Virus record (IMG/VR): IMGVR_UViG_3300032103_000216
Span: 1 to 49,799 of that record
Origin: a virus
Lineage: Duplodnaviria; Caudoviricetes
Length of the DNA stretch: 49,799 nt
Direction: 5' to 3' (one strand)
In this document: positions 26,074 through 42,243 of the stretch, piece after piece
Layout: each line of letters starts with the position of its first letter
Position numbering within the stretch: the first letter of the stretch is position 1
The notes under the pieces: generated by a model
Seen by the model: the letters and a program-made list of their open reading frames with translations, nothing else
Databases searched by the model: none
What the model was told of the DNA's origin: nothing
Translations under genes and position numbers: made by a program

Positions 26074-26084
26074 ATTATTGTTGG

Positions 26085-26501: not shown

Positions 26502-26521
26502 TTATTTTTAAAATATTTTTG

Positions 26522-26593
26522 TGATTCATATGGGATTCGAACCCATGTCAAGACTTTTAGAGAGTCCTACATTAACCGCTATGCTAATGAATC
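26522..26593 (-). tRNA. amber suppressor tRNA (anticodon CTA)
   Basis: GATTCAT/ATGAATC acceptor, anticodon arm GGACT-CTCTAAA-AGTCT, T arm ATGGG-TTCGAAT-CCCAT. Confidence 0.88.
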
Positions 26594-26620
26594 ATAGTAA
26601 TTTATATATTATACATAAAA

Positions 26621-26911
26621 TTAATCATCTTGGCTACCAAAAAAGTTCATTCTTATTATCTCAAAGTTTTCCAATGAAATATACTTAGTCTTAAATTTAT
26701 TATCTTCTTTGCCTACTTGATACATATATGTTTCACCTGATACAATAAATTTCTTTAAATTTTCATCATCTATACCAGCCTTTTCCCTATCTTCTTTAGT
26801 GGTATTTTCCATGATGTATTTATACCCATCACACTCTCTATCGGCTTTTGATGTTGGATATGTTCTTTTTAGAAGTGTAAATTTACCCATGATATTTTCT
26901 GATAAACCCAT
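26621..26911 (-). CDS. hypothetical protein
   Basis: ATG ORF. Confidence 0.65.
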   Translation of the reverse strand: MGLSENIMGKFTLLKRTYPTSKADRECDGYKYIMENTTKEDREKAGIDDENLKKFIVSGETYMYQVGKEDNKFKTKYISLENFEIIRMNFFGSQDD

Positions 26912-26939
26912 ACTGGTTCACAGTATATTCATAACTTCT

Positions 26940-27936
26940 TTAGTTTACATATTTTCTATCAGTCTTTTTTGCTACATTAGCAATTGAAGATAATAGTTTT
27001 TTGGTTGCCTTTATTGGTTTATTCTTGACTCTACTATCTTCACGTTTACCGATATCTAAATAAGTTTTAACGGTTTCATTATTTAATTCAAAAACCTTTT
27101 CACCTAAACTTTCAATCACTACATCAAGAGTCAAATTACAATATTCATCAATCCAATCACCAATATAATATAATCTTCTTGAACCACGAATAACTCCAAA
27201 TAAGATAGGGTCTTTTTTTCTTTTTCTTTATTTGTAAGATCAGTAGCATCATTATTTGAATCATAATGAAGGATCACATAATTATCAAAAACCAATTGGT
27301 CATCAGTTTTTCTTTTTACTTCTAATATTTTTGATGGAATAGGTTTAATGAAATTACTTATCCAAGTAAGTTTTAATGCTTTATCTTTTTCAGTTTTATT
27401 ATAAAAGTCTACTATTTGATCTTCTGTTAGAAATTTGTTTATTCCATATGCCACTAATTGAGATTCTGCTTTGGCTGATTCTAATCTACCTTTAAGTGAT
27501 TCAACTAATGCAACTTGACCAGCATCTTTAGCATTCTTAATTAATGTTTCATAATGAATGGCTATGTCAGTGAGCGATTTTAATTCTGAAAGTGAATTTG
27601 CAAGTGAAGAAAAAAATTGAAGAACAGTCATAGTTAACTTCTTATCTTTTTTCTTTTTTTCATAAAGCCGCCAAATAATTTTGAAAAGATATTAGAGTTC
27701 TTTTTTACATCTAAATCAATACTACCATCACTACCTTGACAAACAGTGGCAGTACTCCATGAATTTGTTCCTGTACCAGTATTAAATACTATAATCCCAT
27801 TTGAATCAGTAACAGGTAATAGTGGAACACTATTACCTAATTGTACCTGTGTAACAATGTTTTTATTAAATTTTGGAAGTGATTGATTTATTTGAAAATT
27901 TTCAAAAATTAAAAGTTTATTGTTTGACGTTACCAT
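26940..27936 (-). pseudogene. hypothetical protein split by two poly-A frameshifts (probable assembly errors)
   Basis: ORFs 27634-27966, 27131-27631 and 26940-27134 join at A-runs near 27650 and 27215 (...KEKK|DPILFGVIRGSRRLYYIGDWIDEYC). Confidence 0.6.
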
Positions 27937-28005
27937 ATGTATGATTTTTGGTAAAAATAGAAACAAAAAATAAAAAAGTCAATACATATTGATAATTTTA
28001 ATTAG

Positions 28006-28082
28006 AGTAGATGGTGGGATTCGAACCCACGACATATGCAAGTTTTGCAGACTTGCGCCTTGAACCACTTGGCGACATCCAC
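28006..28082 (-). tRNA. tRNA-Cys(GCA)
   Basis: Loop CTGCAAA, U73, cloverleaf. Confidence 0.9.
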
Positions 28083-28090
28083 GTATTATG

Positions 28091-28172
28091 TACCCTCAGT
28101 CAGACTCGAACTGACACGTCTTTCGACATTGGCTTCTTAGACCAACGTGACTACCATTTCCACCATGAGGGC
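28091..28172 (-). tRNA. tRNA-Leu(AAG)
   Basis: Loop CTAAGAA, long variable arm. Confidence 0.85.
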
Positions 28173-28175
28173 ATT

Positions 28176-28258
28176 TAGTATTGTTCTGTCATTGAACTAC
28201 AATCTTACTCCATGAAAGTAATTTGAGAAAGGTGGGACTTCAACCCACAACTATACTA
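28176..28258 (-). ncRNA. circularly permuted tRNA-like (YrlA-like) RNA
   Basis: 5'->3' order is T arm (GTGGG-TTGAAGT-CCCAC), looped acceptor-like stem, then D arm (GTTC-AATGACA-GAAC), closed by TAGTAT/ATACTA. Confidence 0.5.
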
Positions 28259-28269
28259 TTTTTTTTATG

Positions 28270-28357
28270 TACCCCAAGTAGGATTCGAACCTACACGCTA
28301 CTATTACTTCGCACTGGTTTCTAAAACCAGCATGTCTCACCGTTCCATCATTGGGGC
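28270..28357 (-). tRNA. tRNA-Leu(TAG)
   Basis: Loop TTTAGAA, long variable arm. Confidence 0.88.
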
Positions 28358-28362
28358 ATATA

Positions 28363-28737
28363 TTATATATCGTAATATCTTACTAATATATTCTTTTCGT
28401 TTGCTATGTTGATCATATGTGTTGAACCTTTTGAGTTATTAACTCTAAACACCACACATGCATCAGCATTTTCTGCCATTTGAACATTCCTTAAATATCC
28501 AGCACTCTTACCAAATTTATTCCAATCTGCAGGATACCTATGAATATCAAAACCATTTTCATTAGCATATCTTTCACCTAATTTATCTGCACCAACAGCA
28601 GTTCCAGATACAATATTGATTTCAAAATCTTCAAGTTTCTTAGCTAATAAATGATCAAGTTTTTCTTTAAGAAAATCATAATCATTAAAGTCTTTACTAC
28701 CAGCTACGATAACTCTAAACTTTTCTTTTTTTTTCAT
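28363..28737 (-). CDS. SLOG-family protein (DUF2493 / YspA-like)
   Basis: VIVAGS.DF, IVSGTAVGAD, PADW..GKSAG..RN..MA, SKGS.HM. Confidence 0.85.
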   Translation of the reverse strand: MKKKEKFRVIVAGSKDFNDYDFLKEKLDHLLAKKLEDFEINIVSGTAVGADKLGERYANENGFDIHRYPADWNKFGKSAGYLRNVQMAENADACVVFRVNNSKGSTHMINIANEKNILVRYYDI

Positions 28738-28738
28738 G

Positions 28739-28825
28739 CTCTTGGGGTAAGATTCGAACCTACGTTGGAACTTACGTTCACCAGATTAACAGTTTGGACT
28801 TTTCGGCCACTAAAGCAACCCAAGA
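28739..28825 (-). tRNA. tRNA-Asn(GTT) with long variable arm
   Basis: Loop CTGTTAA, G73, about 17-nt variable region. Confidence 0.75.
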
Positions 28826-28951
28826 ATATTTTAGGATGTCAGTGCAGTTACAATGATAACATCCCCAAATAAAGCAACTTGATTCGGTATCTGTTGACTT
28901 ACTAGTAACTCGCAAGTGACTCCCGACTTTAACAGCCTCTTTATTTGTTTG

Positions 28952-29038
28952 CAGAGAGTGAGGGATTCGAACCCCCGATCCCCGTAAAGGGACTCTTGTT
29001 TTCAAGACAAGTGCAATCAACCACTCTGCCAACTCTCT
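28952..29038 (-). tRNA. tRNA-Ser(TGA)
   Basis: Loop CTTGAAA, long arm, G73. Confidence 0.92.
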
Positions 29039-29354
29039 ATTTTCGATAAATAGAATCTTTAACTCTATTCATCAATTCAATTTCATCTTTTGTTAGTTCT
29101 TCAGTATTATTATCTGGAAGCATTTCATCATATGTTAAATAAAATCTTATTCTATGTTTCCAAATAAATTTAACACCAATTGCTAACTTAAAATCTTTAA
29201 GACTAACATTATCATTAATAATCCAATATAATGCAAAATCAATACCACCTAAACCTGAAATATAATCAACTCCTTCAACTAAATTTGAGTTACGTAAACC
29301 CTTATATATTGAAGTGTTGTATTTTTTAATACCTTTTATGTAGACAGTTTGCAT
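29037..29354 (-). CDS. hypothetical protein
   Basis: ATG ORF with TATCTTTG promoter at 29364-29371. Confidence 0.7.
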   Translation of the reverse strand: MQTVYIKGIKKYNTSIYKGLRNSNLVEGVDYISGLGGIDFALYWIINDNVSLKDFKLAIGVKFIWKHRIRFYLTYDEMLPDNNTEELTKDEIELMNRVKDSIYRK

Positions 29355-29400
29355 ATGTTGTTACAAAGATAATAAATTATTTTTTTAAATAAAAAAATTG

Positions 29401-29491
29401 AAGAGGATGTGAGACTCGAACTCACAAGACGGATTGGTTACCGTCACGGCAGTTTTCAAGACTGCTGCCTTACCAATTAGGCTAACCCTCC
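29401..29491 (-). tRNA. tRNA-Ser(TGA)
   Basis: Loop CTTGAAA, long arm. Confidence 0.88.
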
Positions 29492-29496
29492 AAGTT

Positions 29497-29630
29497 TAAA
29501 CGTGTTGCTGCAAGTAGTACGGGCACGATCCGTTTTATTGCCATCCTCTTATTTCTATTTTCATCCATCGATAGACTACTCATAGGTTTGCGCAAACCAG
29601 CACCAATGTTATAAGCATCAGCCACGTTTA
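29497..29630 (-). ncRNA. candidate structured ncRNA within the tRNA operon
   Basis: Terminal stem TAAACGTG-GCTG/CAGC-AA-CACGTTTA, internal GAGTAGT/ACTACTT and GGTTT-GCGC-AAACC. Confidence 0.5.
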
Positions 29631-29634
29631 TTTG

Positions 29635-29706
29635 AGCGACATGCGAGACTCGAACTCGCTACTGCAGAGTGGAAGTCTGCTGTGTAACCATCAACACCTA
29701 TGTCGC
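29635..29706 (-). tRNA. tRNA-Gly(TCC)
   Basis: Loop CTTCCAC, U73. Confidence 0.88.
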
Positions 29707-29711
29707 ATTTG

Positions 29712-29843
29712 CTGTACCAGTAGGACTCGAACCTACAAATGGAGATTAGGTTTATGCCAGTACGTTTAAACTCGCATCACTTTTTCTCTTTATCCACTCC
29801 CTTGTGACCGAAGGGCTATGTCTGCCATTTCCACCACAGTACA
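29712..29843 (-). ncRNA. tRNA-like RNA with ~60-nt variable arm
   Basis: Acceptor, Leu-like D arm, CCCTT-CGGTCAC-AAGGG arm and canonical T arm, 132 nt. Confidence 0.6.
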
Positions 29844-29851
29844 ATATTATG

Positions 29852-29922
29852 AGCCTGAAATTGGACTTGAACCAATACCTCTCGCTGCGCAGCAAGTATG
29901 CTACTATTTACACCATTCAGGC
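29852..29922 (-). tRNA. atypical tRNA (6-nt anticodon loop TGCGCA, identity unclear)
   Basis: Acceptor, D and T arms intact, U73. Confidence 0.5.
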
Positions 29923-29976
29923 AATAACTTGGGTACATTATCTTTCACGAGATAAGAGGCTTATCCGAGCATAATG

Positions 29977-30050
29977 TGCAGTATATCGGGATCGAACCGA
30001 CTCTATCCCTGATTGGCAATCAGGCGCACCACCATTTATGCGTATACTGC
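29977..30050 (-). tRNA. tRNA-Gly(GCC)
   Basis: Loop TTGCCAA. Confidence 0.85.
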
Positions 30051-30056
30051 TAAAAG

Positions 30057-30145
30057 CAGAGAGTAAGGGATTCGAACCCTTGGGTCAGGTTTACCCGACC
30101 TACAGTTTAGCAAACTGTTGCAATAGACCACTCTACCAACTCTCT
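30057..30145 (-). tRNA. tRNA-Ser(GCT)
   Basis: Loop TTGCTAA, long arm, G73. Confidence 0.92.
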
Positions 30146-30151
30146 AAAATG

Positions 30152-30224
30152 TGCTCACGATAGGACTCGAACCTATAACCGACATGGTATAAGCATGTTG
30201 CTCTCACCATTGAGCTACGTGAGC
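30152..30224 (-). tRNA. tRNA-Ile(TAT)
   Basis: Loop CTTATAC. Confidence 0.85.
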
Positions 30225-30268
30225 ATATATCGTCCAATAAAGGACGAATATACTAAAAATTTACCAAA

Positions 30269-30280
30269 ATGTCAATGAAC
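30269..30280 (-). promoter_or_regulatory. rrn-type boxA-like element
   Basis: GTTCATTGACAT between tRNAs. Confidence 0.5.
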
Positions 30281-30287
30281 TCTAATG

Positions 30288-30360
30288 TGTGGGTAGTCGG
30301 TTACGATCCGACCTCTCTGGATTTTCAGTCCAGTGCTTTCACCAGATTAGCTTTACCCAC
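30288..30360 (-). tRNA. tRNA-Phe(GAA)
   Basis: Loop CTGAAAA, variant T loop ATCGTAA. Confidence 0.82.
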
Positions 30361-30366
30361 ATTATG

Positions 30367-30438
30367 TGGGACTAACAGGAATCGAACCTGCGCTATACGC
30401 TTTTCAGGCGTACACTCTACCTACTGAGTTATAGTCCC
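30367..30438 (-). tRNA. tRNA-Phe(GAA)
   Basis: Loop CTGAAAA. Confidence 0.9.
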
Positions 30439-30448
30439 AAAATTTTTG

Positions 30449-30520
30449 AGGGAAGGGTGGGGATCGAACCCACGACAGGCAGATTAACAATCTGCTGTTC
30501 TACCTCTGAACTACCGACCC
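30449..30520 (-). tRNA. tRNA-Asn(GTT)
   Basis: Loop TTGTTAA, two acceptor mismatches. Confidence 0.82.
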
Positions 30521-30522
30521 AT

Positions 30523-30556
30523 AAAACAAAAAACCCGACTTTTTAGATCGGGTTTT
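30523..30556 (-). terminator. attenuator terminator of tRNA operon 1
   Basis: AAACCCGAT-CTAAAAA-GTCGGGTTT followed by TTTGTTTT, directly before tRNA-Asn. Confidence 0.85.
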
Positions 30557-30576
30557 CTCTTTTTTTTTGTTAGTTT

Positions 30577-30699
30577 TTAACTAACTGTAATATCCAAAGA
30601 ATAACCCGACTTTTTATGGCAAGAGCCAAAAAAATTACTTCCTGATATAGAATTACTATTCAGGTTGCAAAAGTTATTATTTAGATTGACTAATTTCAT
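30577..30699 (-). CDS. tRNA-operon leader peptide 1 (MKLVNLNNNFCNLNSNSISGSNFFGSCHKKSGYSLDITVS)
   Basis: Lies between promoter and terminator and contains antiterminator AAAAAGTCGGGTT (30603-30615). Codons match the downstream tRNAs. Confidence 0.8.
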   Translation of the reverse strand: MKLVNLNNNFCNLNSNSISGSNFFGSCHKKSGYSLDITVS

Positions 30700-30715
30700 T
30701 TCTCTGATTTTTTTA

Positions 30716-30754
30716 CAAAGTTACACATAAATACGTTCTTGTCAAGAAAAAGTT
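30716..30754 (-). promoter_or_regulatory. composite tRNA-operon promoter
   Basis: AAC...CTTGAC-N4-ACGTATTTA...TAACTTTG, conserved at 34099 and 42204. Confidence 0.8.
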
Positions 30755-30763
30755 TACTTTTTT

Positions 30764-31252
30764 TTACAAAAGTTTATAATTTTCAACATTAACATCTTCA
30801 ATCTTTTTAAAAATCACAGGATTTGTTTCTAACCATCTTTCAACATCGACATGATCATATTTAAAGACAAGTAGACAAGTAGATTCACTTTTAGTAACAT
30901 CTACAGTTTCAATCCAATCAAATATTCTTTTTCTGAGAACATCTTTTTTTAATTTCAATAATTCATTCCTTAAAAGAACATATCGAATATCTTGAAATAT
31001 CTCATTGTTTTCATCTTCATTTAAAAAATATTCTCCATCAATTCTTGATAAGAATATTAATGCAATAACATGAGTGCCATAATCTAACCAAGCATCAATA
31101 CCAAAGCAATCTGAATCATGGTGATTTGAGCCATACCCAAAACCACAATTGGGGCAACCATCTAAAAGATAGTACCCCAATGATCCACAGCGTTGAAACA
31201 TCTTGTTGTAATTACAACAAGGGCATTTACCACCAATTGCCTCAGTTAGCAT
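30764..31252 (-). CDS. zinc-ribbon hypothetical protein
   Basis: CPCC...CPNCG. Confidence 0.65.
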   Translation of the reverse strand: MLTEAIGGKCPCCNYNKMFQRCGSLGYYLLDGCPNCGFGYGSNHHDSDCFGIDAWLDYGTHVIALIFLSRIDGEYFLNEDENNEIFQDIRYVLLRNELLKLKKDVLRKRIFDWIETVDVTKSESTCLLVFKYDHVDVERWLETNPVIFKKIEDVNVENYKLL

Positions 31253-31523
31253 TCTCCAATTTCTTGTATTTCAAGATTGTTGTTTTAGATAAACCAAAAT
31301 GTTTTGCTGCAGCATTCAATGAATTCTTACAAGTAAAACTTTTAATTTGCTTTACAACAGATTTCTCAATTGGATTCAACTTTAAGCCGATATCATCCAA
31401 ACCCTCATTTTGACAATGATACGAAATAGTTGATTTGGCACAGTTCAATTTTTCTGCAATCTGGTTGTATGTCAACTTTCGCTTACGTAATTCAATGATT
31501 TTTTCTTTTAAACCGAAATTCAT
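31242..31523 (-). CDS. helix-turn-helix protein
   Basis: TYNQIAEKLNCAKSTISYH plus a second HTH-like segment. Confidence 0.7.
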   Translation of the reverse strand: MNFGLKEKIIELRKRKLTYNQIAEKLNCAKSTISYHCQNEGLDDIGLKLNPIEKSVVKQIKSFTCKNSLNAAAKHFGLSKTTILKYKKLENAN

Positions 31524-31558
31524 AGTTATTTAGTTTAGAACATTAAAATTTGATGTGT

Positions 31559-31584
31559 TATACGAGAATAACCTAATTTTGGTT
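31559..31584 (-). promoter_or_regulatory. putative ECF-sigma promoter AAC-N17-CGTATA
   Basis: Exact spacing, upstream of the ATG at 31523. Confidence 0.6.
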
Positions 31585-31618
31585 ATTTTAACTTAATTAA
31601 AATTACTTAACTATCTAA

Positions 31619-31867
31619 TTAGTCAATATCATATATAGTTTTTTGCGTAGTATTAATTGCTACTTTAATAGTTTTAAGTATTTCAACTTTATATATTACT
31701 ACCTCAAGAGTATCATTAAAACCTAATTGGTTAAAATTGCTTTTTATATTTTTAATAACCTCTTCCTCATTATCAAAGCCTTCTTTTGGATATGCTTCTA
31801 ATCCATATTTATCGATATCTTTAACTAATTGATAATCATAAAAAACTTCTTTAATTTTTTTGCTCAT
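31619..31867 (-). CDS. hypothetical protein
   Basis: ATGA overlap with the upstream stop (MSKKIK). Confidence 0.6.
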   Translation of the reverse strand: MSKKIKEVFYDYQLVKDIDKYGLEAYPKEGFDNEEEVIKNIKSNFNQLGFNDTLEVVIYKVEILKTIKVAINTTQKTIYDID

Positions 31868-32349
31868 ATGCCAGTATATTTTTTTATATAAAAAATGTCT
31901 AATTCCCACTGAAATTTACTTCTTTTTTTCCATATTTCAAATGATTCAGCAATATATTTTATGGCTTCTTTTTTAGACATGTTATTAACCTTTACTAATT
32001 GATTAATAACAATATGTTCCTCTCCATTCATCTGTGCTAAACCAACATGTTTTGTTTTATGACAATAAGGACATAATGCAATAAGACCTGTAAGTATTTG
32101 TTTGTGATTGGCATCATCATAATGCCATATTTCATGACATTCTACATTATGATTAAATCCTTGTTCATTACCAGTAGCACCACAGATTTCACATTTATGA
32201 TTTGCAAGTTTATAACATTTTTTTCGTATTATGTCCCAAGTAAATTCAGACACATGACTACGAACATTAGTGTACCAACATGTACTTGGTACTAATTCAA
32301 TTGTAAGACGTAATTGGGTTTTATCCATTTCAAAAAATGAAAGTTCCAT
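31864..32349 (-). CDS. HNH endonuclease family protein
   Basis: ELVP..W..NVRS, CEICG, ECHEIW.Y, LCPYCHKTKH. Confidence 0.8.
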   Translation of the reverse strand: MELSFFEMDKTQLRLTIELVPSTCWYTNVRSHVSEFTWDIIRKKCYKLANHKCEICGATGNEQGFNHNVECHEIWHYDDANHKQILTGLIALCPYCHKTKHVGLAQMNGEEHIVINQLVKVNNMSKKEAIKYIAESFEIWKKRSKFQWELDIFYIKKYTGI

Positions 32350-32395
32350 AGTTGTGGCGTTAAGCCTAACGGCAAGTCACTTTCAACCCACCTCG

Positions 32396-32467
32396 TTGTC
32401 GATAACAGAATCGAACTGTTGACTGCTTGTGTATCAGACAAGTACTCTACCACTGAGTTAATCAACA
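32396..32467 (-). tRNA. tRNA-Ile(GAT)
   Basis: Loop CTGATAC. Confidence 0.85.
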
Positions 32468-32518
32468 AAATATTAAGGATTCCATACCTAAAAGGGAAGT
32501 CACCCATAACCCACCTCG

Positions 32519-32593
32519 TAGTCATAACAGGATTTGAACCTGTACTCTCAAAATTATCAGTTTTGCGCTTTAACCAAATTAAGCTACATGACC
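32519..32593 (-). tRNA. tRNA-Ile(GAT)
   Basis: Loop CTGATAA. Confidence 0.9.
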
Positions 32594-32997
32594 ATTATCT
32601 ATATTTGTTAGATATATAATCTTTATATAGTGTTTGTGATAATAAATATGTTTTACAAGAATCAGTAAATATTATGGTGGTTTGTTCATTCCAAATAAAA
32701 CAATCTCCTACAGATTGTGCTTTATATTCACAAATTCCATTACCAACATTTTTTTTTCTCTTATTTGATAAATAACACCATCACAAGTATCACAACTAAT
32801 AATAATGTAATTACTAAAATAATCAATAATAATTTTCTCATATTTAATATATAAGAAATTCACGCACTTTTTAGAATTAATTATTTTCTGTGAATGAATT
32901 CTTATCATTAAATACTTAATATCTATTACTTTATTTTACATTAATATTTTTATAGCTAATCACCCAATTGAGTTTGTTTTAATTATTAATTTTTTTG

Positions 32998-33070
32998 TAC
33001 CCTTAGTAGGATTCGAACCTACATCTGATGAATCGAACTCATCAATTTTTATCCATTAAACTATAAAGGT
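32998..33070 (-). tRNA. tRNA-Arg(TCG)
   Basis: GATGA-GTTCGAT-TCATC anticodon arm. Confidence 0.8.
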
Positions 33071-33129
33071 ATTGTTTACCATTTTTTTATTGCATTACCA
33101 CTAATTACAAAATCGAACCTTTATTTATG

Positions 33130-33201
33130 TACTCTTAATAGGAATCGAACCTATATCTAATGCTTCGCAAGCATTTATTTTTTCCGTTAAACTATAAGAG
33201 T
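33130..33201 (-). tRNA. tRNA-Arg(GCG)
   Basis: AATGC-TTGCGAA-GCATT anticodon arm. Confidence 0.8.
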
Positions 33202-33203
33202 AT

Positions 33204-33305
33204 GCTCCGACTTTTACTTATCCGCATTTCGGATACCTATTGATGGTGGTTGTTTCAGTCGGCAACCAGAAGGTTTACAATGACTACGCTAACCTACAAA
33301 CCCTG
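33204..33305 (-). ncRNA. candidate pseudoknotted RNA between Arg tRNAs
   Basis: Three hairpins. Loop CCGACT is complementary to the 3' AGTCGG. Confidence 0.4.
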
Positions 33306-33307
33306 CG

Positions 33308-33380
33308 TACACCTAACAGGACTCGAACCTGTACTTTTCTCGTTAGAAGCGAGAAGTTCTTCCAATTAAACTATAGATGC
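33308..33380 (-). tRNA. tRNA-Arg(TCT)
   Basis: Loop CTTCTAA. Confidence 0.88.
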
Positions 33381-33410
33381 ATATATTATCACATTTAAAT
33401 GTGAAAGTAG

Positions 33411-33482
33411 TACCCCCGATAGGAATCGAACCTATATCAAATGATTAGAAGTCACTTATTTTATCCATTAAACTACAGGGGC
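33411..33482 (-). tRNA. tRNA-Arg(TCT)
   Basis: Loop CTTCTAA. Confidence 0.9.
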
Positions 33483-33490
33483 ATCTAAAT

Positions 33491-33733
33491 TTAGAATCCA
33501 ATTCCAAATTTAACTACAGTATCATCACCTAAATCATTTTTAACACTAATTTTCAATACCTTTTTTAAGTCAGTTGAAAACAAATAGTCAAAAACATCTA
33601 AGTTAATAGTAACTACTTTGCTACTGCGTTCTTTTTTAAAAATTTTAATTGAATTTACGTCTTCAATTTTTAGTAAATCAAATTCATTCATTAATTTGAA
33701 TTTACCACTTACAATATCTTTTACTGTAAACAT
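33491..33733 (-). CDS. hypothetical protein within the tRNA operon
   Basis: 80-aa ATG ORF filling the gap between tRNAs. Confidence 0.65.
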   Translation of the reverse strand: MFTVKDIVSGKFKLMNEFDLLKIEDVNSIKIFKKERSSKVVTINLDVFDYLFSTDLKKVLKISVKNDLGDDTVVKFGIGF

Positions 33734-33748
33734 AATTATTTAATTTTG

Positions 33749-33834
33749 AGCTTGGAGTGGGATTCGAACCCACGTGAAGGTATTACCTCTCCTGATTACA
33801 AGTCAGGTGCAATCGACCACTATGCGACCCAAGC
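33749..33834 (-). tRNA. tRNA-Thr(TGT) with long variable arm
   Basis: CCTGA-CTTGTAA-TCAGG, variable hairpin GAGGT-AAT-ACCTT. Confidence 0.8.
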
Positions 33835-33844
33835 AAAACCCAAT

Positions 33845-33856
33845 ATGTCAAAGAAC
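33845..33856 (-). promoter_or_regulatory. rrn-type boxA-like element
   Basis: GTTCTTTGACAT after the first tRNA of the operon. Confidence 0.55.
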
Positions 33857-33866
33857 CTTTTATCCG

Positions 33867-33938
33867 AGCCAAGACTAAGAATCGAACTTAGGTTTTTACT
33901 CTACCAAAGTAACGTAATTTCAACTATACTATCAAGGC
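33867..33938 (-). tRNA. tRNA-Thr(GGT)
   Basis: TTACT-TTGGTAG-AGTAA anticodon arm. Confidence 0.82.
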
Positions 33939-33942
33939 TTAT

Positions 33943-33976
33943 AAACAAAAAAACCCGATTATTTTTAATCGGGTTT
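33943..33976 (-). terminator. attenuator terminator of tRNA operon 2
   Basis: AAACCCGATTA-AAAA-TAATCGGGTTT followed by TTTTGTTT. Confidence 0.88.
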
Positions 33977-34005
33977 AAGTGTTTATGATATTTTTATAAA
34001 AAAAT

Positions 34006-34080
34006 TTACACAATAAACCCGTTAGATGACGTAGTACGTCTTTTTCTTGTAATTCGGGTAATTTTAATTAAATTTTTCAT
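34006..34080 (-). CDS. tRNA-operon leader peptide 2 (MKNLIKITRITRKRRTTSSNGFIV)
   Basis: Thr/Arg/Ile codon cluster followed by antiterminator CGGGTTTA, upstream of Thr/Arg/Ile tRNAs. Confidence 0.82.
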   Translation of the reverse strand: MKNLIKITRITRKRRTTSSNGFIV

Positions 34081-34098
34081 TATTTTCAATATTTTATG

Positions 34099-34138
34099 CA
34101 AATATACTACTAAATACGTTAAAGTCAAGAAAAAAGTT
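34099..34138 (-). promoter_or_regulatory. composite tRNA-operon promoter
   Basis: AAC...CTTGAC-N4-ACGTATTTA...TATATTTG. Confidence 0.8.
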
Positions 34139-34833
34139 TATTTTCTTTGAATTATTTCATCAACAATTCCATATTCTAAGGCTTCAATACCTTTCATCCA
34201 GTAGTCTCTGTCACAATCCTTCTCTATTTGTTCAAGAGTTTTCTCTTTACCTTTTGGTAGGTGCATTTGAATGATTTCGTAAAGTTCTGTTTTGATGATA
34301 TGAATTTGTTTATAGCTAATTTCCATATCTGATGCTTGACCTTGCATACCACCTAATGGTTGATGTAGCATAATTCTTGAGTATGGTAAAGAGTATCTTT
34401 TACCTGCAGCACCAGATGCCAATAAAATTGCACCCATTGATGCTGCTAATGAAATTGCGACAGTTGATACATCTGGTGTAATGTATTGCATTACGTCACG
34501 AATACCGTAACCAGCGTAAACAGAGCCACCGGGAGAGTTAATATACATCGTGATATCTCTCTTCGGGTCAAGATTATCTAAGAAAAGTAATTGTGCAGTA
34601 ACAACATTACATACAAGATCATCAATTGGCATACCAAGAAATATGATCCTATCCTGCATTAATCTTGAGAATACATCAATTTCTCTAAAGTTCATTTGAC
34701 GTTCTTCAATAATGGAACGTGTCATGTCAGTGATACCATGATTCATTTGAGCATTATCATACCTATGTAATGTTAATGATGAAATGCCCATGTGATTTAC
34801 GGCATAATTTTTAAATTCTTTGCTGATATTCAT
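34138..34833 (-). CDS. clpP: ATP-dependent Clp protease proteolytic subunit
   Basis: DVFSRLMQDRIIFLG, YINSPGGSV, AASMGA, RIMLHQPLGG, DRDYWM. Confidence 0.95.
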   Translation of the reverse strand: MNISKEFKNYAVNHMGISSLTLHRYDNAQMNHGITDMTRSIIEERQMNFREIDVFSRLMQDRIIFLGMPIDDLVCNVVTAQLLFLDNLDPKRDITMYINSPGGSVYAGYGIRDVMQYITPDVSTVAISLAASMGAILLASGAAGKRYSLPYSRIMLHQPLGGMQGQASDMEISYKQIHIIKTELYEIIQMHLPKGKEKTLEQIEKDCDRDYWMKGIEALEYGIVDEIIQRK

Positions 34834-34926
34834 AATTTAATTTTAAGTTTAACAAAAATAATGAAATTAGATTTTATTGTCAATAATTATAAAATTTTAC
34901 ATAGCTAATTTTTGTATTTATATTTG

Positions 34927-35211
34927 ATGAAAAGAATTTTAATTAGATTAGGTATGACACTATTTTTATTGTTTGGTGTTGAATCTTGTGCTGTTTTTAA
35001 CGGTGGCACGTATGACAAAAATCCATGTTTTTATTTAGACAATCAAAATATGAAAATTGAGTGTTTAAAATGGAGAGAAAATTATCCTAGAGAATATAAT
35101 AATTTCTATGATAGAGTTAAGAGAAAATATATTGATTCAGTTTATTTATCGTTACCACCAAGAGTAGATTTTTTATTAAAAAAAAATGGTAAAGTCACAC
35201 CATTAAAATAA
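34927..35211 (+). CDS. putative lipoprotein
   Basis: MKRILIRLGMTLFLLFGVESC signal/lipobox-like N-terminus, TATTTATA upstream. Confidence 0.55.
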   Translation: MKRILIRLGMTLFLLFGVESCAVFNGGTYDKNPCFYLDNQNMKIECLKWRENYPREYNNFYDRVKRKYIDSVYLSLPPRVDFLLKKNGKVTPLK

Positions 35212-35523
35212 ATTCATTTAACTACGTCAATAACATATTGAATTTTTGGTGTATATTTTATACTCCAAACTTTAATGTAGTATTTATTTTTTTCTCTATC
35301 ATATCGATGTGCAATTAATCCAGAAAATAATTTAACTATTAAATTATACTGGTTTTTTGTTACTTCAATTGGTATGTCGTACAGTATTTTCTGTGTTTGT
35401 TTCCATATGGGCAATGTTTACATTTATTTTTACAACAATATCCTCTTTTTAAATGATATGCTTCTGTAAACACAAATTTACCAGATTCAATGTAGTAATC
35501 AATATTTTCCACTAATTTATTTT

Positions 35524-36069
35524 TCATTCATTATGATAATATACTTTATTACATAAACAAATAAAATCATCGTTTTTCAGTGATTTCTTAATTAAAAAGA
35601 TATCTTTGTGTACCCATTGAATATTTCCAGTAATGTAACCTTGTTCTGGAATTATAGTATCCAACATTGCCGTTGTTTTATCTGAATTATATGGATATCC
35701 TGAAAACTCTAAATCTAATCCAGATAATTTACATTTTTTATTTTGTTTTAAAACAATATCCCATGCTTCTTCAATTCTAACATTAAATATAATTTTTTTA
35801 CTTGAAGCATATCTTTTTATTTGTGCCCACATGTCGCCAGATATTTCACCATATCCTTTCCTATTCTTTAATCCAACTTCTTTTCTAGCACAATTAGAAC
35901 ATTGAGTTGATCTTCCATTCATTAATGAATTAGACTTAACCTCTAGAACATATCCACAATCACATTCACACAACCAGTATGTCAGGTTATTCTTTTTTTT
36001 AGGTAATGATTCAAGAACTGTCCACTTACCAAACTTTTTACCTTTCTCAATTAACAAGAATTTACGCAT
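35524..36069 (-). CDS. putative endonuclease (AP2/HNH-associated zinc-ribbon N-terminus)
   Basis: GKKFGKWTV...WLCECDCG...CSNC, C.LSG...D.I....GY..GNIQWVHKD. Confidence 0.65.
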   Translation of the reverse strand: MRKFLLIEKGKKFGKWTVLESLPKKKNNLTYWLCECDCGYVLEVKSNSLMNGRSTQCSNCARKEVGLKNRKGYGEISGDMWAQIKRYASSKKIIFNVRIEEAWDIVLKQNKKCKLSGLDLEFSGYPYNSDKTTAMLDTIIPEQGYITGNIQWVHKDIFLIKKSLKNDDFICLCNKVYYHNE

Positions 36070-36349
36070 ATTAATTACTTATTTTTTGATTCAAATATGT
36101 ATTGAGTATAATCCAACATTTTGTTCCTAATATGTGTACATTACATTAATATTAGTTTATATTTTATATTATTCTCATCTAATACTAGATTCTCATCTAA
36201 TACTAGATTTCCGTCTAATATAGTAAATTTTTTTATATTTGTCTCTTTTCTGACAATATTTAATAGATATTCTTCATGAAGAAATAATGTGACATACTCG
36301 TTATTAAGTATGTCACATATTTGATTATATACTTCTTTATGAAGGTAAA

Positions 36350-39300
36350 TTAACCGCATTTTGAGTTACCACAAGATACACAAGTTAAACAACCTTCTTT
36401 GTATTCAAGGTTTTCACTACCACAGCTTGGGCATTTACCATTACCTTTTTCACCATCTTGAAAATATCGCTTAATAACTCTGGCAACACCATTCTTCCAA
36501 GTATTAAGATGCTCATCATTTAAATTTAATGATTGAATTAAATTCAATACATAAACCATTGGCATCCCATGACGTAATACTGACGAAATCAATTTAGCAT
36601 AATTCCAGAATTCAGGATTAAAAGTATGATTTAATCCAGTGTGAACTTTCTTCTCTCCATTAACATCAACGTATTCAATGTCGTAACGCTTAGTACCATC
36701 ATCATACTTATTTTTTACAATTTCACATTCAGTAATATTTGTAGGCAATTCACTTAAACCATTTTCTAATTTACCTGTAAATATTTCATATGGTCTTCCA
36801 TCAAGTAAACCAACTACCGCAATCCACTTTTCAAGATTATTTTGAAAACGAATAATCTCACCTTTTAATCTTTTAGGTCTTTTAGGTGCATGATTATCTT
36901 TAAATAAGTTTTCCTTTTCTTTTTTCTTCTTATCTGTTTCAGAAATTAAAACACCAGAACGAGAGCCATCACGGTATACAGTAATACCTTTGCATTTTGA
37001 TCTCCATCCAGTTTCATATACTTTACCAACCATTTCTTCAGTGATTTCATTTGGTAAATTTACTGTTACAGAAATTGAATGATCTACATGTCTTTGTACC
37101 CGACCTTGCATTTCAACTTTCTTTACCCAATCAACATCGTTTGATGTAGCACCATAATATGGTGAAAGTTTAACAAGTTCATTAATCTGTTCATTAGTAT
37201 AATGTAGCTTAACATTTTCAACATCATAGCCATTTGCAACTAACCATGTTTCAAATTTATGATGAAATACAGGATACTCCATCCAAGTATCACCTAACTC
37301 ATCAACAAAATCAACACGAACATTTTTATCGTTAGGATTAATTTTTCTTCTACGAGTATAATATACCAAAAATACACACTCAATACCAGATGATGTTTGA
37401 GTCATAATAGATACTGAACCAGTAGGAGCAATTGTAAGTAAAGCAAGATTTCTTCTGCCATACTTAATCATTTGTTTATATAATTCAGGGTCTTCATTTT
37501 CAATTCTCTGAATGAATGGATTTTTTTCTTCACGTCTAAAGTCATACATAGGGAATGCACCACGTTCTTTAGCCATGATAACTGATGAACGATATGCTTC
37601 AAGTTTAAGTACTTTATGCACTTCTTCTGAAAAATCATTTGCTTTATCAGTACCATACTTTAAACCAAGTGCTGCAAGCATATCACCTTCAGCAGTAACA
37701 CCAAGACCTGTTCTACGACCTCTTGTTGCTTTATCTTTAATATTCAACCAAAGTTGTCTTTCAGCATTTTTTATGTGCTCAACTTCAGGATCGTTCTCAA
37801 TCTTAGTTAAAATTTTAACAACTTTTTCCAATTCAAGATCAACAATATCATCCATTAATCTTTCAGCAATAATCGCATCTTCTTTAAATGCTTCCCAATC
37901 AAAATATGCATCTTTGGTGAATGGATTTACAACATAACCATATAAGTTGATTGCTAATAAACGGCAAGAGTCGTTAGCACATAATGTAATTTCACCACAT
38001 CTTCTTGTTGATATACCATTAACTATAATATTTCTACCAATATCTTCTTTTAGACAGTAAACTGGTTCATTTTCACATACTTTAATTTCATTAATAGTAT
38101 CAGTTAATGAATCTGAAATTCTGTAATCATGCGTTGTATCAAATTTACTTTCTTTCACATTATCACCTATAAACCCAAAATATTTACAATAATTCACTAT
38201 TGATGAATTTATTGTTATTAATTCATATTGTGTTTTAGTACGATACATTTTATTACCACCATTTCCATCTGGTAGTGATGTCATTTTAGAATCTCTTCTT
38301 TTATAGATTTTAGTCATAACACCATTAGAATGTAATATCAATTGTATTTTTTCAAGTAAATTTTTATTACTTTGTGCTAACCTGATTGAAAAACCAGACC
38401 TTTTCGTACCTTGAATTGAACCATCACAATACATCAATGCTGCAACGTAATATTTACCAATGCTGGTTCTTGAATTTCTTAAAATAAATTCTGGTACATG
38501 ATGCTTAGTTTCCCTATTGAAATTACAGTACTTATCTAGAATAATAGCTAACCATTTGGATGTTATTCTAATTTTATCTGCATCAACAATGTCGCTACGC
38601 ATATATTTAGAATATAGTTTATTTTTTTCATTTACTTTTTCATCAAAATTTTGATATAGAGTATCAATCATATTAGTAACGAATTCATACATTCTTTCTT
38701 TATCTTCACCCCATAAATCTATATGAACTCTACCATTTTTTTTAGTAAATGTACCATCACCAGTAATTAACCCAATTAATGTAGCCATAATCTCATCTAA
38801 AGAAGTAGGTGTTAAACCAACAATAGAATCACCAACATTTGGTTGACTAATCAATATTTGATGTTCAGGTGTGATGTCTTTTGCCTCAATCATCCCATCT
38901 GTTGTTGCAATATGATGGTCAGGCGTACACTTTAATTTTAGTCCACTATTTAATGTTAACTCAATAATTTCTGCATCTGATTTCGTTAAAAATACATTAC
39001 TTGCATTTCTTTCTATTACACCTGATTCATCCATATTGATTTTCCAATTCTCTGGTTTTTCAATTCCATCATCAACATATGAAATTCTATTATCTGCAAG
39101 TATAGTGTTTTCAACACCTTCATCATTTAGTTTCCCAAATTTTACATACCCATTTTTAGTCAACAGATATTCCGATGCAGGAAAGCAAGGATTTGTTGAA
39201 ATTGTTTTAAACCCTAAATCAGCATAACAATCAGGAATAGATTCACGAATAATTGTATCCCAAAATAAGATTCCGGGTTCGGCTGATTTCCATGCATTAT

Positions 39301-41122
39301 GTACAATCTTCTTCCAAAGTTTATTAGCATTAATTTCTTTAGTAAAAACTGGATTATCTGAATCAACAGGATATTGTGTGGTATATGATTTATTGCCCAC
39401 TGCAGCTTCCATGAAGTCATCATGTATTCTAACAGATACGTTAGCACCAGTTACTTTACCTTGTGTCATTTTAGCATCAATGAATGATTCTGAATCAGGA
39501 TGTTTGATTGATATTGATTCCATCAATGCACCTCTACGACCATCTTGTGCCACTTCTCTTGTAGTGTTTGAAAAACGTTCCATGAAAGGAACAACACCTG
39601 TTGAAGTTAATGCTGAATTTTTTACTGGTGAACCTTGTGGTCTGATAAAAGATAAATCAACGCCAACACCTGCACGTCTTTTTTGTAATTGAGCAATTTC
39701 CTGATCTAGTTTAAAAATACCACCATATGAATCTGCATCTTGATCATTACCAATTACAAAACAGTTATGGCATATTATATCACCAGCAACAAATGAGTGA
39801 TCTTCCTCAACTTCCATATCAAAAACTTCAACATTTATTGGTGACTTGATAAATGTTATTTTATCTTCTTTAGTTGAGATTGTTGTACCTATTGTTCTAT
39901 TTTTTATTAATTTTCCTTTAGACAAAAAATTATATCTAACATTTTTACCAATACTTCTACACAATAATCCCAATTCATATGCCAATGTCTGATTTGCAAT
40001 TGCAAAATAATTATAATCATCATCAATGTCAGTATAATTAGTTCCATCACCAAATAAAAATCCATCAATAATTTCTCTTTTTAATTCATCATCAAGAGAA
40101 AAAATCCATTCTGGTAATCTTTTACAATCAAATCCATGTCCAAATAATTTGTTAATTAATTTAGCAAATTCAGGTTCAAAAATATTTATTTGGATGAAAT
40201 TAAAGTTATCCCATTTTTGAATCCATGACTTATGACCTAAAATTTCAATGAAGAAATTATCTAATCTATCTTTTACATGATCTTCTTCATCAACATTTAA
40301 GGTCAAATATAGTGATGGATGATTACTACCTATTTTTTTTATTGCACCTTCTGCTAAATATAATCCAATAAACCATGCAAAATCTTTATTTAAAAAAACA
40401 TGTTTTCCATTACCAATTGGAAATAAGTCAGGTGATTTAATATCACTAATCAATTTAGGCTGTTTTAACCTTTTATTTTGTTTGTTTAATAAATCTTTAA
40501 CTTCAATCCATTCATTATTTTCAGTATATACTTTATGTTCAGGAGTAACTGCTAAGTATTTACCCATTTCGTTTTCATTTCTTACATTAGGACGTTTATC
40601 TCCAAATGTTCTTGTTATTGTATATGTTTCTTTTATACCATTAAACCAATGTTTTAATACTTTTCTAAAACGATTATTATGTGTTAATACATGATAACCT
40701 GATTTTATATCTTTCATTTTAATTAATCCAAATTCTTTAGTATATACCAAAGATTCACCATGAACACAATTCGAAATCGAAATTGTTTGAAAATTATTTC
40801 CAATACCAGCCATTGGTGATCCTTGTGGAACAATCTTTTCAAAGTGTTTGATCTTATCATATATAAGTTCTGCTGATAATGGATTTTCGTATTTAGCTTC
40901 GATTCTTGCAAGTTCATTTGCTAATCTCCAGTGCATGTCATCAGGAGTTAACTCATAAAGATTTCCATCTGAATCTTTTAAACAGTATTTGTTTATCCAA
41001 ACTTCTGCTGCTAATGTATCTCCTTTAAAATAATCTAAGGTTGCTTTGTAAACCTCTTCTCTTGTGTAACGTTTTAAAATTGTTTTTTCTTGTTTTTTAG
41101 GTTCTTCTAATACGGCTTCCAT
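36350..41122 (-). CDS. nrdJ: class II (adenosylcobalamin-dependent) ribonucleotide reductase with two inteins
   Basis: PQGSP, SNC|FV, RRGALM, NP|CGE, RRTGLG, IAPTGS, HSISVTVN, KGITVYRDGSR and a C-terminal TSCPD/zinc ribbon. Likely start is MEAVLEE at 41122. Confidence 0.95.
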   Translation of the reverse strand: MEAVLEEPKKQEKTILKRYTREEVYKATLDYFKGDTLAAEVWINKYCLKDSDGNLYELTPDDMHWRLANELARIEAKYENPLSAELIYDKIKHFEKIVPQGSPMAGIGNNFQTISISNCVHGESLVYTKEFGLIKMKDIKSGYHVLTHNNRFRKVLKHWFNGIKETYTITRTFGDKRPNVRNENEMGKYLAVTPEHKVYTENNEWIEVKDLLNKQNKRLKQPKLISDIKSPDLFPIGNGKHVFLNKDFAWFIGLYLAEGAIKKIGSNHPSLYLTLNVDEEDHVKDRLDNFFIEILGHKSWIQKWDNFNFIQINIFEPEFAKLINKLFGHGFDCKRLPEWIFSLDDELKREIIDGFLFGDGTNYTDIDDDYNYFAIANQTLAYELGLLCRSIGKNVRYNFLSKGKLIKNRTIGTTISTKEDKITFIKSPINVEVFDMEVEEDHSFVAGDIICHNCFVIGNDQDADSYGGIFKLDQEIAQLQKRRAGVGVDLSFIRPQGSPVKNSALTSTGVVPFMERFSNTTREVAQDGRRGALMESISIKHPDSESFIDAKMTQGKVTGANVSVRIHDDFMEAAVGNKSYTTQYPVDSDNPVFTKEINANKLWKKIVHNAWKSAEPGILFWDTIIRESIPDCYADLGFKTISTNPCFPASEYLLTKNGYVKFGKLNDEGVENTILADNRISYVDDGIEKPENWKINMDESGVIERNASNVFLTKSDAEIIELTLNSGLKLKCTPDHHIATTDGMIEAKDITPEHQILISQPNVGDSIVGLTPTSLDEIMATLIGLITGDGTFTKKNGRVHIDLWGEDKERMYEFVTNMIDTLYQNFDEKVNEKNKLYSKYMRSDIVDADKIRITSKWLAIILDKYCNFNRETKHHVPEFILRNSRTSIGKYYVAALMYCDGSIQGTKRSGFSIRLAQSNKNLLEKIQLILHSNGVMTKIYKRRDSKMTSLPDGNGGNKMYRTKTQYELITINSSIVNYCKYFGFIGDNVKESKFDTTHDYRISDSLTDTINEIKVCENEPVYCLKEDIGRNIIVNGISTRRCGEITLCANDSCRLLAINLYGYVVNPFTKDAYFDWEAFKEDAIIAERLMDDIVDLELEKVVKILTKIENDPEVEHIKNAERQLWLNIKDKATRGRRTGLGVTAEGDMLAALGLKYGTDKANDFSEEVHKVLKLEAYRSSVIMAKERGAFPMYDFRREEKNPFIQRIENEDPELYKQMIKYGRRNLALLTIAPTGSVSIMTQTSSGIECVFLVYYTRRRKINPNDKNVRVDFVDELGDTWMEYPVFHHKFETWLVANGYDVENVKLHYTNEQINELVKLSPYYGATSNDVDWVKKVEMQGRVQRHVDHSISVTVNLPNEITEEMVGKVYETGWRSKCKGITVYRDGSRSGVLISETDKKKKEKENLFKDNHAPKRPKRLKGEIIRFQNNLEKWIAVVGLLDGRPYEIFTGKLENGLSELPTNITECEIVKNKYDDGTKRYDIEYVDVNGEKKVHTGLNHTFNPEFWNYAKLISSVLRHGMPMVYVLNLIQSLNLNDEHLNTWKNGVARVIKRYFQDGEKGNGKCPSCGSENLEYKEGCLTCVSCGNSKCG
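38000..39187 (-). mobile_element. intein 2 (396 aa, LAGLIDADG) at NP|CGE with atypical C-terminal Arg
   Basis: Starts CFPASEY, block B CTPDH, LIGLITGDG and ALMYCDG motifs, ends VYCL...IIVNGISTRR|CGEI. Confidence 0.85.
39764..40768 (-). mobile_element. intein 1 (335 aa, LAGLIDADG) at SN|CFV
   Basis: Starts CVHGES, VTPEH, FIGLYLAEG and GFLFGDG motifs, ends VFDMEV..DHSF...CHN|C. Confidence 0.92.
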
Positions 41123-41290
41123 TTTTAATTTTTTGTAGTTTTTTATAAAATAAATAGACTCTGACACTGACAGTATCAGAATGTTTTTTGGATTTTTTAC
41201 CAATGTTAGAAATAAATACAAGATGTGTCAACCAAACTTTTGAAAAAATAAATATTTATTTTTTCTGTTAAGTGTAACTATTGATTATCA

Positions 41291-41566
41291 CTACTTTACC
41301 CAAAAATTTTTTGATTTAGTAGAGGTAGATTGTTTAAAGTATTCTCTTTTTTTAGGTTCTTTTGGAAATTTAATTCCTGTTTTTATTTTTTCATTAAAAA
41401 GTAAATTGCTTCCTAAGTGGGTATCATACTCAAACCAAGTACTACCTGAATAGTAACTTGTTTCTTCAATTAATTTTTCTTCAGATGAAGCAGTTGATAA
41501 TAATTTATCCTGTGCTTTGTTATTATAAAGCAAATAATATTTAGATGGTTTGATTTCTTCAGACAT
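41291..41566 (-). CDS. hypothetical protein
   Basis: 91-aa ATG ORF ending in TAG. Confidence 0.7.
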   Translation of the reverse strand: MSEEIKPSKYYLLYNNKAQDKLLSTASSEEKLIEETSYYSGSTWFEYDTHLGSNLLFNEKIKTGIKFPKEPKKREYFKQSTSTKSKNFWVK

Positions 41567-42052: not shown

Positions 42053-42090
42053 AAAATAAAAAACCCTGACCTTTGTGAAGATCAGGGTTT
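42053..42090 (-). terminator. attenuator terminator of tRNA operon 3
   Basis: AAACCCTGATCTT-CACA-AAGGTCAGGGTTT followed by TTTATTTT. Confidence 0.88.
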
Positions 42091-42111
42091 ACTACTGTTG
42101 CTTTCTTACTG

Positions 42112-42180
42112 TTAAGACATAGTATTACCGATCTTCACTTCTGAAGACTTTTTATAATAATATTTCTTTACAGTTTTCAT
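42112..42180 (-). CDS. tRNA-operon leader peptide 3 (MKTVKKYYYKKSSEVKIGNTMS)
   Basis: KKYYYKK followed by antiterminator GTGAAGATC, upstream of Tyr, Tyr and Lys tRNAs. Confidence 0.85.
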   Translation of the reverse strand: MKTVKKYYYKKSSEVKIGNTMS

Positions 42181-42203
42181 TTCTTTAAATATCAATTTTT
42201 TTA

Positions 42204-42243
42204 CAAATGTACAACTAAATACGTTAATGTCAAGTAAAAAGTT
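42204..42243 (-). promoter_or_regulatory. composite tRNA-operon promoter
   Basis: AAC...CTTGAC-N4-ACGTATTTA...TACATTTG. Confidence 0.8.

Follow-up and report, generated by a model that had tools for sequence, protein, structure and literature searches.

The window, as we call the whole stretch of DNA analysed here, is a 49,799-base virus record (29.6% G+C) with 25 tRNA calls by ARAGORN, arranged in three minus-strand clusters. The phage is aquatic, its best-matching run being labelled aquatic metagenome, and positions 26000-41596 are covered by a contig of the probable source run with 0 differences (a comparison that is not independent of the window). The nearest relatives of the window's ClpP and IMPDH-like proteins belong to uncultured huge phages and Lak phages (36-54% identity). 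We infer a Bacteroidota host from a -7 element of the form TAHHTTTG, the consensus of the Bacteroidota type in the accessible part of PMC6847099, and from A-rich translation starts without a Shine-Dalgarno sequence.

Read along the minus strand, the Thr/Arg/Ile operon consists of a promoter motif, a 24-codon open reading frame (ORF), an antiterminator strand, a terminator and then two Thr, four Arg and two Ile tRNA genes (Table 1). An earlier note on this DNA had listed the tRNAs as Thr GGT, Thr TGT, Arg TCT twice, Arg GCG, Arg TCG and Ile GAT twice; ARAGORN returned the same series in the same order, and all eight also match Rfam RF00005. The 13 codons that it quoted (ATT AAA ATT to ACT ACG) are codons 5-17 of the ATG-started ORF, and the pairing that it proposed between leader end and terminator is present in the predicted fold, where CGGGTTTA (34021-34014) pairs with TAAACCCG (33977-33970) at a predicted -12.9 kcal/mol for the region, against -13.4 for the terminator. 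The 31-nt promoter pattern has exactly three matches in the window, each ahead of a leader, and 0 in 100 shuffles; each is followed by a short ORF beginning ATG-AAA, a terminator and a tRNA cluster.

Table 1. Positions of the Thr/Arg/Ile cassette and its tRNA genes, the two sister cassettes, and the held-out cassettes
Feature	Position	Strand	Remarks
Promoter motif	34099..34129	-	31 nt, common to three tRNA operons; ends in Bacteroidota-type -7 element TAHHTTTG; presumed active
Leader ORF, 24 codons	34006..34080	-	ATG start, A at -3 and -6, without Shine-Dalgarno; putatively translated
Control codons 5-17	34030..34068	-	Thr, Arg or Ile in 11 of 13
Segment 1 (ACC-CG of codons 8-9)	34055..34059	-	Predicted 1:2 helix with segment 2
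Small predicted hairpin	34028..34040	-	From codons 14-18, CGT and ACG included
Segment 2, antiterminator strand	34014..34021	-	Within last five codons; pairs with 33977-33970
Intrinsic terminator (segments 3:4)	33944..33977	-	11-bp stem and U tract; ends about 8 nt before first tRNA
tRNA-Thr(GGT)	33866..33938	-	ARAGORN and Rfam; acceptor stem with two T-T mismatches, possibly decaying
tRNA-Thr(TGT)	33748..33834	-	ARAGORN and Rfam
tRNA-Arg(TCT)	33410..33482	-	ARAGORN and Rfam
tRNA-Arg(TCT)	33307..33380	-	ARAGORN and Rfam
tRNA-Arg(GCG)	33129..33201	-	ARAGORN and Rfam
tRNA-Arg(TCG)	32997..33070	-	ARAGORN and Rfam
tRNA-Ile(GAT)	32518..32593	-	ARAGORN and Rfam
tRNA-Ile(GAT)	32395..32467	-	ARAGORN and Rfam
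Sister cassette A	42061..42234	-	Same promoter motif; 22-codon Lys/Tyr leader 42180-42112; terminator; Tyr, Tyr, Lys tRNAs (cassette and tRNAs 42234-41688)
Sister cassette C	30528..30746	-	Same promoter motif; 40-codon leader 30699-30577; terminator; 14 tRNA calls (cassette and tRNAs 30746-28005)
Held-out leader-terminator cassettes before tRNA clusters (seven; genomes without annotation)	L349 1012-1125, L352 830-958 (MK250020.1, Lak-B1); L338, L339, L341, L343 (LR756504.1)		

Thr, Arg and Ile codons make up 12 of 23 in the leader, against 17.0% across 22 long ORFs of the window (binomial p=1.2e-4), and none of the 6153 windows of 23 residues in those ORFs reaches 12. Each of the four Thr codons occurs once (p=0.022); three or more types among four Arg codons have p=0.26, so the Arg variety taken alone is not notable. 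The locus has the features of a ribosome-controlled attenuator: a short leader ORF between promoter motif and downstream genes, control codons related to the function of those genes (tRNAs), and an intrinsic terminator opposed to a mutually exclusive antiterminator (predicted folds and a test of own against foreign terminator arms). Judged from its sequence, the cassette has the testable features of an attenuator, with a divided result for the protector or pause helix, which would cause termination on an untranslated leader. The 1:2 helix is predicted, with one compensatory change in the ortholog L001, and it loses to 2:3 in the window model (0.99) and is dominant in L001 (0.16). Among the runs listed for the locus none was an RNA run, and two possibly metatranscriptomic runs gave a single 166-nt contig, outside the leader.

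Sister cassettes A and C each have their own matched leader, antiterminator and terminator. The cassette C leader carries Asn, Ser, Phe, Gly, Leu (CTN), Cys and Ile (ATA) codons. When the three leaders were set against the three operons, the diagonal gave p values of 0.0017, 0.00012 and 2.6e-6, and all six off-diagonal comparisons gave p>=0.28. The leader of the Ile-GAT operon has ATT four times and ATA not at all; the leader of the Ile-TAT operon has ATA.

Further cassettes were located independently of leader content, through ClpP relatives (whole-record tRNA searches) and terminator patterns. A fixed rule defined the terminator as a hairpin of <= -11.5 kcal/mol with a U tract, <=230 nt from a tRNA, and the leader as the longest ATG ORF of 12-50 codons ending 15-110 nt ahead of the hairpin; the Lys/Tyr operon of L322 was assigned by visual inspection. 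The rule gave 61 terminator-tRNA junctions (a set excluding 40 loci with 300-nt flanks, short loci superseded by longer fetches, and near-duplicates), with an ORF at 55, and the 55 ORFs reduced to 38 families. With the window's own codon usage as background for all phages, which limits the reading for G+C-richer ones, the mean leader-operon match was z 2.73 against 0.11 +/- 0.22 when permuted (38 families; 0 of 20,000 permutations reached the observed value). Nineteen of the 38 families rank their own operon first, the Thr/Arg/Ile leader of the window stands at rank 1 of the 38, and seven families show no match (z<=0.5). The tRNA groupings differ among phages (Asn/Tyr/Gln, Phe/Pro/Val, Ile/Arg, Ser/Arg, Pro/Gln/His), and the leaders track the grouping. 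Peptide sequence varies across operons; what is kept is the codon-to-tRNA match, the antiterminator distance and the complementarity to the operon's own terminator.

Of 120 viral loci with the terminator pattern, 36 have a tRNA <=230 nt after it (17 of 21 under a stricter tail), and of 120 bacterial loci located with the stricter tail, 1 does; these scans covered 9 (viral) and 6 (bacterial) of 64 parts, and the bacterial set is rich in related flavobacteria. Clusters of at least three tRNAs have a cassette in 28 of 34 cases among the fetched records, six of which were picked for having a terminator. Six of the 34 have no leader by the fixed rule; of these, one shows a leader on visual inspection and another has its terminator farther upstream. 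The Tyr/Tyr/Met/Leu cluster of L307 (G006) lacks a leader and has a promoter immediately 5' of its first tRNA. Leaderless tRNA clusters also occur in G004, and no tRNA was seen within 6 kb in the ClpP relatives L002-L012. At L309 (631-777) and L310 (703-825), one longer leader stands before a merged operon that combines the amino acids of the Thr/Arg/Ile operon with most of those of cassette C.

The leaders of LR756504.1 and of MK250020.1 (Lak-B1) were held out and fetched once the tests were fixed. Their own operon was the best fit for all seven leaders; one from Lak-B1, which covers 14 amino acids, was weak (z=1.2). LR756504.1 has ATA three times ahead of Ile(TAT) and ATT four times ahead of Ile(GAT).

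Geometry was analysed in 36 operons with full downstream cover (after removal of 18 incomplete operons and of a single ORF that proved to be the end of an ordinary gene). Codons 2-3 are unmatched; at 4-12 codons before the antiterminator strand 254 of 323 codons match the operon (85.9 expected), and from the strand onward 90 of 287 do (77.7 expected). Held-out leaders gave 51 of 63 before the strand (16.4 expected) and 17 of 71 after it (18.9 expected). Control codons end one ribosome footprint ahead of the antiterminator strand in both sets, and this crowding of matched codons followed by a drop to background is the geometry expected of ribosome-controlled attenuation. In these 36 leaders, TANNTTTG is found <=70 nt away in 23 and a Shine-Dalgarno-like word in 2.

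A footprint model in which pairing is blocked to 13 nt past the A site placed the switch in the window leader at codon 17, where the Thr/Arg/Ile codons of the control run end: the terminator 5' arm is sequestered at 0.99 with the ribosome at codons 2-16, at 0.50 at codon 17 and at 0.01 beyond. The half-way point in L001 is the last Thr codon, and modelled switching exceeds 0.3 in 33 of the 36 leaders. Leaders form a duplex of -12.8 kcal/mol with their own terminator arm and of -8.0 with foreign arms. Without a ribosome, and contrary to textbook attenuation, the model predicts read-through in the window leader (0.99); for L001 it predicts termination (0.16), so that the modelled default state differs between the two.

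The ortholog comparison draws on L001, the only full ortholog (ClpP 85% identical), and on partial variant lists. Searches for others with the promoter pattern returned 0 viral and 2 short metagenome loci; the antiterminator-terminator pattern returned L001's contig and one chance match, the tRNA-Thr pattern 9 loci (one being L001's contig), and the leader-core pattern 11 loci, the other 10 without a tRNA. No leader homologue was found by blastn against isolated phages. The leader ORF of L001 keeps its start, frame and stop position with one in-frame codon inserted, and the promoter motif has decayed. Thirteen substitutions separate the ORFs, four of which compensate one another in pairs: in helix 1:2 the change of CGA to CAA is matched by AAC to AAT (G-C to A-U), and in the inner hairpin that of CGT to GGT is matched by ACG to ACC (C-G to G-C). 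The chance of such pairs is about 0.003 by shuffle, and 121 of 500 by the tool's own control, which has little power at n=2 sequences. A C-G pair between segment 2 and the terminator arm becomes U-G and is still paired, and 9 of 9 core pairs of the terminator are identical. Since CGA, CGT and ACG are part of the two helices in which these compensatory changes occurred, predicted RNA structure explains part of the identity of these rare codons.

The L001 operon holds only Thr(TGT), Arg(TCT), Arg(ACG) and Ile(GAT) tRNAs. A remnant occupies the place of tRNA-Thr(GGT), and there is a second degenerate tRNA-like stretch (L001 6894-6965 and 7330-7440). Against the earlier note's expectation that leader codons change with tRNA content in homologues, ACC occurs twice in the L001 leader though its tRNA-Thr(GGT) is this decayed remnant, and the leader has no CGN codon for the tRNA-Arg(ACG) that the operon does carry. 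Among the matches listed, relatives' contigs in two other runs (single contigs at a depth of about 4) replace two Lys codons of the control run with Thr and Arg codons, and one relative's contig adds a Thr codon; the Lys-to-Thr/Arg changes would fit selection on the amino-acid set.

The earlier note had proposed that individual tRNA species are sensed rather than the amino acid alone, and resolution finer than the amino acid held up for codon families and was not supported for third-position isoacceptors. Arg (CGN/AGR), Ser (TCN/AGY), Leu (CTN/TTR) and Ile (ATY/ATA) are each split into two codon families; in operons with tRNAs for a single family of such a pair, the served family takes 42 of the 50 control codons, where 27.9 were expected (p=1e-4 by permutation of labels, on 32 operons of which two had the strand position set by hand); with stricter dereplication and no hand fixes (29 operons, 17 cases) p was 8e-4, both for the whole leader and for the control region. 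Held-out single-family control codons matched in 11 of 14 cases (7.0 expected). Served codon families have at least one codon in the leader in 53 of 54 cases; held-out LR756504.1 and Lak-B1 have a control codon for 7 of 10 codon families only. Leaders use 199 distinct codons, where simulation gives 167.7 +/- 5.2. Rare codons occur at twice the expected rate at matched control positions (69 of 331, 33.6 expected) and near expectation at the others (13 of 114, 11.6 expected). The codon counts point to tracking of codon families that wobble cannot bridge and not of third-position isoacceptors; rather than carrying one codon per anticodon, leaders appear to sample several synonyms within each family, rare ones among them.

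A strict mirror, with a leader codon for every operon anticodon and both changing together, is in our judgement improbable. Every anticodon does have a cognate codon in the window, with the Thr codons once each and one codon per Arg anticodon (p=0.057), and across phages a codon was found for 25 of the 33 isoacceptors present (pooled third-position odds ratio, 2.1). Yet a codon was also found for 48 of the 81 that are absent (25/8/48/33, Fisher p=0.13, in a table that pools 15 tests with rows that are not independent); with the L001 counter-examples and the placing of CGA, CGT and ACG in helices with compensatory changes (two sequences only), the one-to-one mirror of the earlier note is not supported. 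It is possible, if unlikely, that the same attenuator instead signals amino-acid starvation or a general slowdown of translation, as thr/ilv leaders do, which would be compatible with the same switch. A stalled ribosome cannot distinguish an uncharged from a missing tRNA. The enrichment of rare codons among matched control codons is also what selective-charging theory, in the accessible part of PMC1183508, expects of starvation sensors. Codon families, however, track anticodons and not amino acids alone, as with the ATA and ATT codons of LR756504.1, and an extra tRNA would presumably be no remedy for a missing amino acid.

We give little credence to a terminator that is constitutive or overridden by a phage protein, with the ORF vestigial or encoding a trans-acting peptide. 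Some clusters do lack a leader (L307, L030, L031 and L033), but between operons it is the codon match, distance and own-terminator complementarity that are conserved, not the peptide. The probability of a chance ORF in an AT-rich spacer, with a terminator that only ends the upstream clpP transcript, is close to nil. The same strand carries clpP, which ends 58 nt before the ORF begins, and AT-rich DNA is rich in Ile, Lys and Asn codons; a promoter motif stands between clpP and the ORF, however, Thr and Arg alone give p=7.6e-4, and the pattern recurs in two sister cassettes without such gene context and in other phages. Codon enrichment, cross-phage matching, geometry and the held-out leaders led us to reject the chance-ORF reading.

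Multivalent leader-peptide attenuators are known from enterobacterial amino-acid operons (thrL and ilvL; also trpL, hisL, leuL and pheL). The phage cassettes are like the thr/ilv type in their short leader ORF, in control codons that precede an antiterminator strand in competition with an intrinsic terminator (mechanism as given in the accessible part of PMC1183508), in the sensing of several amino acids and in rare-codon bias. They differ in that their output is tRNA genes, that their leaders cover up to 14 amino acids each with the code split among several cassettes, and that codon family follows the downstream anticodons; a leader of a thr/ilv-type amino-acid operon was ruled out because tRNA genes, not biosynthetic enzymes, follow the terminator. 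Rfam gave no leader, T-box or ribozyme family at the locus, and no leader family was matched elsewhere (Thr_leader, 23 bits at cassette C; cut-off, 55). In the pheM attenuator of E. coli pheST (phenylalanyl-tRNA synthetase), leader translation reports the level of charged tRNA; the likeness is control of a translation component, and the difference is that it concerns a chromosomal synthetase and one amino acid, not tRNAs themselves. T-box riboswitches bind uncharged tRNA directly, without translation, and share tRNA-dependent antitermination read through a codon; a T-box was ruled out, with no Rfam T-box match at gathering or E<=5. Leader-peptide attenuation has been inferred for amino-acid operons of a flavobacterium (PMC9723704, accessible part). 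The phage cassettes are best described, from their sequences, as a variant of classical ribosome-mediated attenuation applied to tRNA genes.

The layout, codon match, complementarity and geometry are observed, and they recur with different codon sets across phages. We consider it probable that the leader is a ribosome-controlled transcription attenuator exerting negative feedback on tRNA supply at codon-family resolution. Host RNA polymerase would initiate at the TAHHTTTG promoter and a ribosome would translate the leader ORF. Where charged tRNA is short, the ribosome would stall at codons 5-16 and leave segment 2 free to pair with the terminator 5' arm, and transcription would enter the tRNA genes; a ribosome at codon 18 or the stop would cover segment 2, and the terminator would form. 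The tRNA products would relieve the stall and so close the negative feedback, with a resolution that separates Arg CGN and AGR, and Ile ATY from ATA. The phage thus likely makes the eight tRNAs only when ribosomes slow on the leader codons. A switch that has one or two codons for each family would answer chiefly to a severe loss of tRNA; in theory, having few regulatory codons leaves a control region insensitive until they are read very slowly (PMC1183508, accessible part). Such insensitivity would suit a near-total loss of tRNA, as by host anticodon nucleases, and the accessible part of PMC10264068 describes phage tRNAs as replacements for tRNAs destroyed by these enzymes. That work offers a reason for an inducible phage tRNA supply, and the window has RNA-repair and ribosome-rescue genes; the part consulted concerns tRNA sequence, not the regulation of tRNA genes.

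More tentatively, and with rather less than even confidence, we suggest that large Bacteroidota phages, the Lak megaphages among them, split the code between several ribosome-read sensors, each polling the codon families of its own downstream tRNAs, so that a lost tRNA family (for example, to a defence anticodon nuclease) is detected and only that set is transcribed, as an inducible and self-limiting counter-defence. If this is true, the leaders are a sequence-readable map of the tRNAs that fail during infection. Phage tRNA operons whose output depends on how fast their own codon families are decoded would be a shortage response, not a fixed codon supplement, and each leader would be a ready-made reporter of tRNAs failing in infection. 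The system would in that case be a translation-based feedback control of tRNA genes that extends to Lak-B1 (MK250020.1) and LR756504.1. The literature searched (paywalled papers and preprint supplements being outside its scope) yielded no account of leader or attenuator control of tRNA genes, and PMC2965389 does not contain 'tRNA gene', 'tRNA operon' or 'phage'. The locus adds a separation of family-level tracking from third-position sampling, a footprint-length drop in matched codons that repeats in held-out leaders, and a structural role of rare codons.

Thg1, PTH2-like, ClpP, RNA ligase, polynucleotide kinase and phosphatase domains lie near the arrays (18519-19196, 26088-26426, 34138-34833 and 45498-47501); by these predicted domains, the genes near the tRNA arrays are translation-rescue and RNA-repair genes. 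A tRNA with a CTA anticodon (26521-26593, minus strand) is followed next by the PTH2-like ORF (from about 26438 down), whose fourth codon is TAG, and none of 22 long window ORFs ends in TAG (15 TAA, 7 TGA); read-through or recoding of TAG in the phage is possible. At about 25830 (minus strand), outside the stretch compared with the source run, a TAA lies in frame within a small ORF that seems to continue. The ribonucleotide reductase large subunit (36350-41221, minus strand) contains intein and LAGLIDADG domains, and the spacer below the gene has an 18-nt tandem duplication (about 36172-36208).

Among the tRNA genes, the second tRNA-Tyr(GTA) (about 41976-42049, minus strand) was missed by default ARAGORN and detected by a relaxed run and by Rfam (29.6 bits). 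A tRNA-like gene with a 6-nt anticodon loop (29851-29922, minus strand) is kept in L001 at 10406-10476. Between two Leu tRNAs, at 28173-28260 (minus strand), lies a weak YrlA-like Rfam match (19.6 bits against a cut-off of 69). The spacer between Arg(TCT) and Arg(GCG) (33202-33306, minus strand) is structured (predicted -23.8 kcal/mol), matches no Rfam family and is covered by a relative's contig with 4 differences.
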